Below are positions 2,986 through 56,724 of a stretch of DNA of 64,000 nucleotides, piece after piece. Below the pieces are notes generated by a model, which was not told the DNA's origin, ran no database searches, and saw only the letters and a list, made by a program, of their open reading frames with translations. Position numbers and translations under genes: made by a program. Numbering within the stretch: the stretch's first letter is position 1; each line of letters starts with the position of its first letter. The DNA comes from Escherichia coli (lineage in GTDB: Bacteria > Pseudomonadota > Gammaproteobacteria > Enterobacterales > Enterobacteriaceae), in NCBI RefSeq assembly GCF_048403405.1, contig NZ_CP183129.1; one strand, written 5' to 3'.

Positions 2986-3295
2986 TATTCCTTGTTATAC
3001 ACATTACGAAAAATAAGACATTTAAGATCATCAAAAAAGGAAAGTAAATGTATTGCGTATTAAGGAATAGATTAAATTTATTAAAATTCATGTGGAAAAT
3101 AATTTATAAAAATACATCATTAAAACATATGTATTAATTTTATATTTATTTCGCAGCCAAACAGGATAAACATCAGTCAGGACAAAGACGTAAAATTTAA
3201 GATGAAAGAATATCTGCCGCTTTGATAATCCCAAAGAGCAAAAGCATCCGACAGCGAGGTGCCGTTATGTTCTGTGAAAGTGGAGAAGGTAACCG

Positions 3296-6082: not shown

Positions 6083-6120
6083 ATAATGCGGGCCGACATT
6101 TCTTGTCGGCCCGCAAAGCA

Positions 6121-33926: not shown

Positions 33927-34961
33927 ATGGCTTACTCTGTTCAAAAGTCGCGCCTGGCAAAGGTTGCGGGTGTTTCGCTTGTTTTATTACTCGCTGCCTG
34001 TAGTTCTGACTCACGCTATAAGCGTCAGGTCAGTGGTGATGAAGCCTACCTGGAAGCGGCACCGCTTGCGGAGCTTCATGCCCCGGCTGGAATGATTTTG
34101 CCGGTGACCTCCGGTGATTATGCAATCCCGGTGACCAACGGTAGTGGTGCTGTCGGTAAGGCGCTGGACATTCGTCCACCAGCCCAGCCGCTGGCACTGG
34201 TTTCTGGCGCGCGTACCCAGTTCACGGGCGATACCGCTTCATTGCTGGTGGAAAATGGTCGTGGCAATACTCTGTGGCCGCAGGTGGTTAGCGTGCTGCA
34301 GGCGAAAAACTACACCATCACCCAACGTGATGATGCTGGTCAGACACTGACCACCGATTGGGTACAATGGAACCGTCTGGACGAAGACGAGCAGTATCGT
34401 GGTCGTTATCAAATCTCTGTTAAGCCGCAGGGTTATCAGCAGGCGGTTACGGTTAAACTGCTGAACCTGGAACAGGCGGGCAAACTGGTTGCAGACGCGG
34501 CTTCCATGCAGCGTTACAGCACGGAGATGATGAACGTTATTTCCGCCGGTCTGGATAAATCTGCCACTGACGCCGCGAACGCTGCGCAAAATCGAGCCTC
34601 CACCACTATGGACGTACAAAGTGCAGCTGATGACACCGGTTTACCAATGCTGGTCGTACGCGGGCCGTTCAATGTGGTTTGGCAACGTCTGCCAGCGGCG
34701 CTGGAAAAAGTGGGCATGAAAGTGACCGACAGCACCCGTTCGCAGGGCAACATGGCCGTAACTTACAAGCCGCTGTCTGACAGCGACTGGCAGGAACTGG
34801 GCGCGAGCGATCCAGGCCTGGCATCCGGTGACTATAAACTGCAGGTTGGCGATTTAGATAACCGCAGCAGCCTACAGTTCATCGATCCGAAAGGTCATAC
34901 TCTGACTCAGAGTCAGAACGACGCGCTGGTAGCTGTCTTCCAGGCTGCGTTTAGCAAGTAA
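33927..34961 (+). CDS. bamC: outer-membrane protein assembly factor BamC (lipoprotein)
   Basis: Track ORF 33924..34961 trimmed to the second Met. Lipoprotein signal ending in LAAC. Confidence 0.95.
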
Positions 34962-34968
34962 AAATACA

Positions 34969-34994
34969 GGGCTGGAGTCATCCGGCCCTTTTTT
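34969..34994 (+). terminator. rho-independent terminator after bamC
   Basis: GGGCTGG-agtcat-CCGGCCC hairpin followed by T6. Confidence 0.55.
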
Positions 34995-35004
34995 CTGATA
35001 TGAT

Positions 35005-35020
35005 ACGCAAACGTGTGCGT
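35005..35020. promoter_or_regulatory. PurR operator of purC
   Basis: ACGCAAACGTGTGCGT, a near-consensus PurR box, about 150 bp upstream of the purC ATG. Confidence 0.6.
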
Positions 35021-35073
35021 CGGCAGAAAAATGCGATTTTAGCGGTAATTCGCACAAAATTTGTTTGTCGGAC

Positions 35074-35121
35074 GTAGGTCGGATAAGGCGTTCTTGCCGC
35101 ATCTGACAAAACATCCGGCAC
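35074..35121. repeat. REP-like palindromic element (partly degenerate)
   Basis: GTAGGTCGGATAAGGCGTTCTTGCCGCATCTGAC followed by ...CATCCGGCA. Resembles the REP consensus. Confidence 0.5.
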
Positions 35122-35173
35122 ACCAGACAGCAAAAGATTTTAAAACGTTAATTCACACCCAGGAGTGATAAAG

Positions 35174-35887
35174 ATGCAAAAGCAAGCTGAGTTGTATCGT
35201 GGTAAAGCGAAAACCGTATACAGCACGGAAAACCCGGACCTGTTGGTGCTCGAATTCCGCAATGATACGTCAGCAGGGGATGGCGCGCGCATTGAGCAGT
35301 TTGATCGCAAAGGTATGGTGAACAACAAGTTCAACTACTTCATTATGAGCAAACTGGCTGAAGCGGGTATCCCGACTCAAATGGAGCGTCTGCTCTCCGA
35401 TACCGAATGTCTGGTCAAAAAGCTGGATATGGTGCCGGTTGAGTGTGTCGTGCGTAACCGTGCTGCTGGCTCTCTGGTGAAACGTCTTGGAATCGAAGAA
35501 GGTATTGAGCTGAACCCGCCGCTGTTCGATCTGTTCCTGAAAAACGACGCCATGCACGATCCGATGGTCAACGAATCTTACTGCGAAACCTTTGGCTGGG
35601 TGAGCAAAGAGAACCTGGCGCGTATGAAAGAGCTGACCTACAAAGCGAACGACGTGCTGAAAAAACTGTTCGATGATGCTGGTCTGATTTTGGTCGACTT
35701 TAAACTGGAGTTTGGCCTGTACAAAGGTGAAGTGGTACTGGGCGATGAGTTCTCCCCGGACGGCAGCCGCCTGTGGGACAAAGAAACGCTGGAGAAAATG
35801 GACAAAGACCGTTTCCGCCAGAGCCTCGGTGGCCTGATCGAGGCCTATGAAGCCGTCGCCCGCCGCCTGGGTGTACAGCTGGACTGA
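35174..35887 (+). CDS. purC: phosphoribosylaminoimidazole-succinocarboxamide synthase (SAICAR synthetase)
   Basis: Track ORF 35165..35887 trimmed to the ATG at codon 4 ([20 protein letters not shown], 237 aa). Confidence 0.95.
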
Positions 35888-36054
35888 TTTTTCTGCTCAT
35901 CATCTTGCCGTGCAGCTGGCACGGCAAGACAACCGCTCTCGGAAGATGTGCATTGAACGCTCATTCCTCCGCCATTTCATCCCGCTTTCCTGTGGTAATC
36001 TTCCTCTGAACCACCTACGATCATTTCTATAATGAATATATTGTTGAGGTATCT

Positions 36055-36918
36055 ATGCGTTGGCAAGGGCGACGTGAAAGTGACAATGTTGAAGACAGGC
36101 GCAACAGCTCTGGTGGTCCGTCAATGGGCGGTCCAGGTTTTCGCCTGCCAAGCGGTAAAGGCGGGCTGATTTTACTGATAGTCGTGCTGGTTGCAGGTTA
36201 CTATGGCGTTGATTTAACCGGGTTGATGACCGGACAGCCGGTTTCCCAACAGCAATCAACACGGTCAATTAGTCCTAATGAAGACGAAGCCGCAAAATTC
36301 ACTTCGGTGATTCTGGCAACCACGGAAGACACCTGGGGACAGCAATTCGAGAAGATGGGTAAAACCTATCAGCAACCGAAGCTGGTCATGTACCGTGGAA
36401 TGACGCGCACCGGCTGCGGGGCGGGCCAGTCCATTATGGGACCGTTCTATTGCCCGGCGGATGGCACGGTTTATATCGATCTCTCCTTCTATGATGACAT
36501 GAAAGACAAACTTGGCGCGGATGGCGATTTTGCCCAGGGGTACGTTATCGCCCATGAAGTCGGTCATCATGTGCAGAAACTGTTAGGCATCGAGCCGAAA
36601 GTTCGTCAACTGCAACAAAACGCGACGCAGGCGGAAGTGAACCGCTTATCTGTGCGTATGGAACTCCAGGCCGACTGTTTTGCTGGTGTCTGGGGGCATA
36701 GTATGCAGCAGCAAGGCGTTCTGGAAACCGGCGATCTGGAAGAGGCGCTGAACGCGGCGCAGGCCATCGGCGATGACCGTTTACAACAGCAAAGTCAGGG
36801 GCGAGTAGTACCAGACAGTTTCACTCATGGCACTTCTCAGCAACGCTACAGCTGGTTTAAACGTGGTTTCGACAGCGGCGATCCGGCACAATGCAATACT
36901 TTTGGTAAAAGCATTTAA
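36055..36918 (+). CDS. ypfJ: putative zinc metallopeptidase-like protein YpfJ
   Basis: 287-aa track ORF. N-terminal TM. HExxH motif (AHEVGHHVQ). Confidence 0.9.
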
Positions 36919-42016: not shown

Positions 42017-42050
42017 GAAAAAGGCGACACATTGGCATGTCGCCTTTTTT
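42017..42050. terminator. bidirectional rho-independent terminator between ypfM and acrD
   Basis: GGCGACA-cattggca-TGTCGCC hairpin flanked by A5 upstream and T6 downstream. Abuts the acrD stop. Confidence 0.6.
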
Positions 42051-56691: not shown

Positions 56692-56724
56692 CGCTTACCC
56701 TGAATATTCAGGGTAAGCGGTTTT
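56692..56724 (+). terminator. rho-independent terminator after maeB
   Basis: Perfect 28-nt palindrome CGCTTACCCTGAATATTCAGGGTAAGCG followed by GTTTT. Confidence 0.6.

Follow-up and report, generated by a model that had tools for sequence, protein, structure and literature searches.

Genomic context of the purC–ypfJ intergenic region

The region analyzed here is a 64,000-nucleotide stretch of the Escherichia coli chromosome (hereafter, the window), in which dapA, bamC, purC, ypfJ, and tmcA follow one another on the plus strand, with gcvR on the minus strand. According to the list of open reading frames and the RefSeq annotation of identical E. coli DNA, purC, which encodes SAICAR synthetase, occupies positions 35174 to 35887 of the plus strand and ends in a TGA stop codon at 35885 to 35887. 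The coding sequence of ypfJ, the downstream gene that is reached by read-through transcripts, extends on the same strand from its start codon at 36055 to position 36918. A query of approximately 1 kb around the intergenic hairpin site described below found matches in 5,425 of the 5,426 complete E. coli genomes, many of them at 100%. MG1655 coordinates, in which these genes lie on the minus strand, were converted by subtracting the MG1655 position from 2,632,792, and the local alignment underlying this conversion is free of gaps.

Upstream of purC lies the intrinsic terminator of bamC (plus strand, 34968 to 34999; called at 34968 to 34989 by a consensus scan), a hairpin followed by a T tract that served as our canonical comparator and for which Term-seq gives a 3′ end at MG1655 position 2,597,798 (Adams et al. 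2021). This terminator is crowded into about 50 bp together with the purC −10 element (TATGAT, 34999 to 35004), the purC transcription start site (2,597,781 in MG1655, or about 35011 in the window; PMC6131387), and a PurR box (35005 to 35020). Read-through of the bamC terminator varies with the condition, from 44% in M9 to 14% in rich medium, and gives rise to transcripts that extend from dapA to ypfJ (Yan et al. 2018, PMC6131387). The 163-nt 5′ leader of purC contains a degenerate REP-like palindrome (35060 to 35125), which produces a weak, sub-threshold match to Rfam naRNA4 (35077 to 35121, E = 0.011), and a terminator-like site is called there on the minus strand (35129 to 35112).

A stable stem-loop without a U tract follows the purC stop codon

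The first-pass annotation of this DNA had described a perfect 10-bp stem-loop, CTTGCCGTGC-AGCTG-GCACGGCAAG, at positions 35904 to 35928, and we found this structure exactly as described. One additional T-A pair extends the stem to 11 perfect pairs, such that the complete hairpin covers 35903 to 35929 on the plus strand, with a 5′ arm at 35903 to 35913 (TCTTGCCGTGC), an AGCTG loop at 35914 to 35918, and a 3′ arm at 35919 to 35929 (GCACGGCAAGA). Sixteen nucleotides separate the purC stop codon from the 10-bp stem, which begins at the 17th. As RNA, the hairpin folds at −19.5 kcal/mol, with G-C pairs making up 7 of the 11 and a loop of 5 nt, and for an 81-nt segment around it the folding energy is −28.2 kcal/mol (z = −2.5 versus shuffles). 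Dinucleotide-preserving shuffles of the 64-kb window, in which perfect stems with loops of 3 to 8 nt were counted, gave a chance expectation per window of 0.075 for perfect stems of 11 bp and 0.45 for those of 10 bp; the real window holds five distinct perfect 11-bp hairpins. The 25-mer of the purC hairpin is single copy within the window, also when up to 3 mismatches are allowed.

Intrinsic terminators consist of a GC-rich hairpin of approximately 5 to 14 bp with a short loop and a U-rich tract of about 7 to 8 nt directly 3′ of the stem. The purC element has the former but not the latter: there is no T run in its tail on the plus strand (CAACCGCTCT) or on the minus strand (TGATGAGCAG), and a single T is found in the 8 nt after the stem. 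Its T-tail score is 0.04, compared with 4.18 for the bamC terminator, and its d'Aubenton-Carafa d score is −46, compared with +31. A consensus scan for sigma-70 promoters and terminators called the bamC terminator and left the purC hairpin site uncalled. The purC hairpin is similar to canonical intrinsic terminators such as that of bamC, 900 nt upstream, in being a GC-rich hairpin near a stop codon, of like size and energy and with adjoining 3′ ends, but it differs from them in having neither a U tract nor, in its upstream flank (TTTTTCTGCTCATCA), an A tract. This upholds the earlier statement that no U run follows the stem on either strand and that the structure is not a canonical intrinsic terminator.

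The other four perfect hairpins of at least 11 bp in the window are located at 1844 to 1871, 6087 to 6115, 42019 to 42048, and 56692 to 56719. Among these, only the one at 6087 to 6115 scores as a terminator by the same d score, and it does so on the minus strand only (d = +11). The hairpin at 42019 to 42048 coincides with the published ypfM/antisense-acrD 3′ end.

Published purC mRNA 3′ ends map to the stem

Full-length transcripts and 3′ ends that are already published place the main 3′ end of purC mRNA 2 to 6 nt past the stem. In the SMRT-Cappable-seq data from M9 (Yan et al. 2018, PMC6131387), 88 full-length primary reads start at the purC transcription start site. The majority of them (58) end at MG1655 position 2,596,861, which is window position 35931 and lies 2 nt past the stem; the corresponding row (2596861-2597781, reverse, b2476) is flagged ‘novelTTS’. 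Another eight of the 88 reach their end no more than 50 bp further on, and 19 continue past the hairpin, with a median length of 1,077 nt that carries them through ypfJ. The operon variants given in the same study (PMC6131387) are purC alone, purC-ypfJ (b2476|b2475), and a ‘dapA-ypfJ operon’. In the TRS study, which combined RNAtag-seq and Term-seq (PMC10687069), the purC terminus is labeled ‘Primary’, with peaks at 2,596,855 to 2,596,865 and dominant positions at 2,596,857-59, corresponding to 35933 to 35935 in the window or 4 to 6 nt past the stem. Supplementary Data 3 of that study prints exactly the purC hairpin fold, at −20.1 kcal/mol and with a longest U run of 2. The mapped purC mRNA 3′ ends cover 35927 to 35937 on the plus strand (PMC6131387, Supplementary Data 1; PMC10687069, Supplementary Data 2 and 3). 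They establish where the purC transcription unit ends on its 3′ side, with a 3′ UTR of about 44 to 48 nt, and the partial cotranscription of purC and ypfJ is accounted for.

Thus, neither the lack of 3′ ends nor the uniform read-through that, according to the first-pass annotation, would count against a role of the hairpin is seen in the published full-length and 3′-end maps, and its proposal of an mRNA 3′-end stabilizer fits all findings. Several other sources have no entry for this site. The purC 3′ end is absent from the Term-seq lists for LB and M63 (Adams et al. 2021), which is weak negative evidence and counts for little because each of these lists holds only 882 to 1,175 dominant ends, that is, roughly 900 to 1,200. 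The Rho regions from the same study, which were determined in LB only, where purC is repressed, include no purC or ypfJ entry. Likewise, purC is absent from the TERMITe supplement, and a literature search on purC and ypfJ turned up nothing about the purC 3′ end.

A possible further transcript 3′ end lies at window position ~37008, about 75 nt inside tmcA. It is suggested by the median length of the purC read-through reads, and by the label ‘ShorterEnd’ that ypfJ transcripts carry in comparison with the annotated ypfJ-tmcA operon.

Two intergenic alleles each provide purC with a hairpin

The hairpin lies in an allele-specific block of 68 bp (35896 to 35963, plus strand) that is single copy in 3,805 of the 5,426 complete E. 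coli genomes. In approximately 1,620 of the 5,426 (about 30%), including O111:H- 11128, some 825 bp take the place of this block (positions 1176 to 2000 of locus L083 in O111:H- 11128). This insert opens with another 11-bp hairpin, TTTAGCCGGAG-GGTA-CTCCGGCTAAA, which folds at −18.6 kcal/mol and has a partial T tail, and past this hairpin it contains a vapBC type II toxin-antitoxin operon. Among the 80 species sampled, only E. coli has vapBC at the purC-ypfJ site. Since both alleles carry a hairpin past the purC stop codon, purC has a stop-proximal hairpin either way.

Sequence common to the two alleles is limited to TTTTTCTG on the left side and, on the right side, to the stretch beginning at about position 35961. 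Their global alignment yields only spurious internal blocks, save for one 9/10 match (CTCATCATCT/CTCATTATCT) that might be real homology. Because no internal sequence is shared, neither haplotype is a simple deletion of the other.

Sequence variation argues that selection maintains base pairing in the purC sense RNA

We compared the stem across eight E. coli lineages spanning the identity range and in E. albertii. In the eight lineages, both arms are invariant, whereas the loop (35914 and 35915) and both flanks vary; of the 22 stem positions none is variable, compared with 12 of the 46 other positions of the 68-bp block (Fisher p = 0.005). The sole stem change, found in E. albertii, replaces C35913 by T; it yields a U·G pair and thereby preserves pairing only in purC-sense RNA. 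Just outside the stem, the SNP density is unusually high for E. coli (35893 to 35896 and 35935 to 35962), with the identity of the 68-bp block decreasing to 91%, and purC is nearly invariant; possible causes of the SNP density beside the stem are a relaxed constraint or recombination near the vapBC junction.

At a larger evolutionary distance, a hairpin past the purC stop codon is present in almost every one of 64 Enterobacterales loci, at a median offset of 16 nt and with a median energy of −17 kcal/mol, and the sequences of these hairpins are unrelated between genera (Citrobacter, Enterobacter, Pseudocitrobacter, and others versus E. coli). Within the 13 Enterobacter-type loci that share a CAGAGG core, the 9 core pairs are paired in all, five positions show compensatory double changes, and there are four G·U pairs, whose counterparts on the complementary strand would be A·C mismatches. 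In Cedecea, Photorhabdus, Brenneria, and others, the orthologous site carries a canonical terminator with a hairpin and a T tract. Judged from these sequence comparisons, the data argue for selection that maintains pairing in the purC sense transcript: the invariance of the stem, together with the compensatory and G·U changes, points to a structure in the sense RNA and against a sequence-specific DNA operator.

One could also regard the palindrome as neutral, either a product of chance or the scar of the rearrangement behind the two intergenic alleles, given that it sits in a polymorphic block with a high SNP density and that 5% of 40 random 140-nt segments hold some hairpin of −19.5 kcal/mol or lower. 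However, a perfect 11-bp stem is expected only 0.075 times per 64 kb, SNPs within E. coli are found around the stem but not in it (p = 0.005), published transcript 3′ ends coincide with it, and an analogous hairpin is retained in nearly all Enterobacterales; the neutral explanation is disfavored, and we give it next to no weight.

Another option raised by the first-pass annotation was a protein-binding palindrome in the ypfJ upstream region. More generally, the palindrome could act as DNA, be it as an operator bound by a dimeric protein that regulates ypfJ or as a site of recombination or cruciform formation. Its perfect 11-bp inverted repeat lies 125 nt upstream of the ypfJ start codon and 7 nt inside the block whose place is taken by the vapBC-containing insert in 30% of strains. 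On the other hand, the ypfJ promoter block (TTCCTGTGGTAATC...CCTACGATCA...TATAAT, plus strand, 35988 to 36034) is conserved across Enterobacteriaceae, while the palindrome sequence is not conserved between genera and therefore lacks the conservation among orthologous promoters that a recognition sequence of an operator should have. The approximately 30% of E. coli that are without the sequence retain the same ypfJ promoter block, and the G·U-type substitutions keep RNA pairing but break DNA symmetry. Transcription of ypfJ starts 79 and 100 nt downstream of the stem, at 36008 and 36029 (MG1655 2,596,784 and 2,596,763; PMC6131387, supplementary file 4). Moreover, the palindrome is single copy rather than a REP-like repeat, and the TGGCAC within it, as read from the sequence, is not accompanied by a sigma-54 −12 TTGC. 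The protein-binding proposal thus finds no support, and a function of the palindrome as DNA appears very improbable. As for the promoter block itself, its sequence looks like two overlapping weak promoters, one with an extended −10 element (TGTGGTAAT) and one of the form TGGTAA-17-TACGAT.

We considered three further identities and rejected all of them. A REP/BIME or mobile element should occur in many dispersed copies with a consensus; the hairpin has no second copy in the window (up to 3 mismatches) or elsewhere in E. coli genomes, occupying one place per genome in 3,805 of them, and Rfam at a permissive threshold returned no match at the hairpin in a search of 34900 to 36200. REP/BIME elements that serve as 3′ or intercistronic stabilizers (e.g., malE-malF) are nonetheless similar to it in being extragenic palindromes able to block 3′ exonucleases, with differential stability within a cotranscript, and they differ from the purC hairpin in that the latter is single copy and has neither a REP consensus nor an Rfam match. 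A sigma-54 promoter, suggested by TGGCACG in the 3′ arm, would require a −12 TTGC, which the sequence lacks, and no mapped transcription start falls at the site. Finally, a stem of 11 bp is too short to be an RNase III site.

A probable protective stem-loop of a putatively Rho-terminated transcript

The RNA downstream of the stem has an unusual base composition. A C-rich, G-poor untranslated tract, which on the basis of this composition is a putative rut region, extends from 35930 to 36037 on the plus strand; the 100 nt past the stem contain 34 C versus 15 G, and 78-nt windows across 35950 to 36037 reach a C-minus-G excess of +18, a value reached by only the top 0.2% of windows of this length when both strands are counted. 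The ypfJ promoters are located inside this tract, and part of its composition may serve the promoter. Across Enterobacterales, a weak T tail is linked only weakly to a downstream C excess (Spearman −0.25, p = 0.05).

This combination of features corresponds to a class of 3′ ends described by Dar and Sorek (2018), in which an enrichment of C over G and a rut site occur just downstream of the stem-loop and PNPase and RNase II trim the transcript back to the stem. At purC, we likewise see a precise 3′ end right after a stable stem-loop (35931 and 35933 to 35935), few U residues past the stem, no upstream A tract, and a rut-like excess of C over G just downstream. The purC hairpin shares with the protective stem-loops of Dar and Sorek (2018) a stem of terminator strength, the absence of a U tail and an A tract, more C than G downstream, and a 3′ end a few nucleotides past the stem. 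It differs from them in that Rho dependence and trimming are what we infer at purC and in that about one-quarter of the transcripts read into ypfJ. The purC hairpin behaves like, and most likely belongs to, the protective 3′ stem-loops of Rho-terminated transcripts.

What the data show is the hairpin itself, its lack of a U tract, the position of the 3′ ends, the fraction of reads that run past them, and selection for pairing in the sense RNA; the roles of Rho and the exonucleases are what we infer, as follows. With reasonable, though far from full, confidence, we propose that the 3′ end of purC mRNA is both set and protected by the hairpin in the sense RNA once Rho has terminated transcription downstream and the transcript has been trimmed. 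The ribosome would be released at the purC stop codon, 16 nt before the stem, and RNA polymerase would pass through the hairpin, mostly without terminating there because a U tract is absent. The untranslated, C-rich, and G-poor RNA from 35930 to 36037 would then admit Rho, causing diffuse termination over roughly the next 100 to 200 nt, before or early in ypfJ. Subsequently, the 3′-to-5′ exonucleases PNPase and RNase II would trim the tail until they are blocked by the 11-bp stem, leaving a stable end 2 to 6 nt past it. Polymerases that escape termination, approximately one in four, would produce the purC-ypfJ cotranscripts.

Alternatively, the hairpin itself might halt RNA polymerase at 35931 to 35935 without a U tract, as a weak, noncanonical intrinsic terminator, perhaps with the aid of NusA or NusG; in that case, transcription would truly terminate at the mapped 3′ ends. 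The sharpness of these ends, 2 to 6 nt past a very stable stem, with 66% of the reads ending there and few in the next 50 bp, would agree with this idea, as would the canonical terminators with a hairpin and a T tract that sister genera have at the same position. Moreover, Dar and Sorek (2018) leave room for a direct contribution of structures of this kind and refer to terminators of a mixed or transitional type. Nevertheless, trimming by exonucleases yields equally sharp 3′ ends (Dar and Sorek 2018), and the data do not tell apart termination at the hairpin and trimming after downstream termination. What weighs against the hairpin as the point of termination is the single T in the 8 nt past the stem and the d score of −46. 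It is textbook knowledge that hairpin-driven release by E. coli RNA polymerase requires a U-rich hybrid. Overall, we consider termination at the hairpin itself unlikely.

A second alternative dispenses with efficient termination in this region. Transcription might mostly run into ypfJ-tmcA, and an endonucleolytic cut, for example by RNase E, followed by 3′ trimming to the hairpin, might make the latter an intercistronic stabilizer that keeps purC mRNA above ypfJ mRNA by differential decay within the operon. Operon reshaping through differential mRNA decay, which is relevant to this explanation, is reportedly the topic of one paper. Read-through transcripts are indeed known (purC-ypfJ and the ‘dapA-ypfJ operon’), and the role of the hairpin would be protective, the same as in the Rho-based explanation that we prefer. 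But just 19 of the 88 full-length primary reads go past the site, and if processing dominated, more long precursors or 5′-processed ypfJ fragments would be expected. In addition, only about 2% of the TRS 3′ termini overlap RNase E sites (PMC10687069), and no cleavage site is known here. Predominant processing therefore strikes us as quite unlikely. Under both alternatives, the 3′ end of purC mRNA is still located at the hairpin; protection of that end by the hairpin belongs to the processing explanation and to the preferred, Rho-based one, not to termination at the hairpin.

The purC 3′ end and its fold are already contained in published tables, and the class of protective stem-loops is established. 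The finding is real but ordinary: one more U-less, most likely protective hairpin is documented, with little significance beyond annotation.

Variation of the 3′-end element across Enterobacterales

The comparative data also lend themselves to a tentative reading, which we regard as possible rather than probable, namely that the site is a clean natural example of one orthologous 3′-end element that switches its mode and its sequence while its position stays. The element would act as a terminator with a hairpin and a U tract in some Enterobacterales and would be U-less and probably backed by Rho in Escherichia, Citrobacter, and Pseudocitrobacter, and in E. coli it would exist as two unrelated hairpin alleles, one of which is tied to the vapBC insertion. 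If Rho dependence follows the loss of the U tract across species, this would directly support the notion that terminators interconvert by a change of the tail alone. With differing hairpins at the same site, the presence or absence of a T tract, and the vapBC allele, the comparative set is a possible small test bed for the evolution of termination modes.

In many non-Escherichia Enterobacterales, the stop codon of purC and the hairpin are separated by a PurR-box-like palindrome (ACGCAATCGTTTACGT), which is absent from the E. coli window and might serve as a roadblock or in controlling the gene downstream. It lies 2 to 3 nt past the purC stop codon (at about positions 3216 to 3232 of the respective locus) in L019, L022, L023, L027, L028, L030, L032, L035, L038, L041-L043, L045, L048, L050, L053, L056, and L063, and further downstream in L040, L055, and L071.
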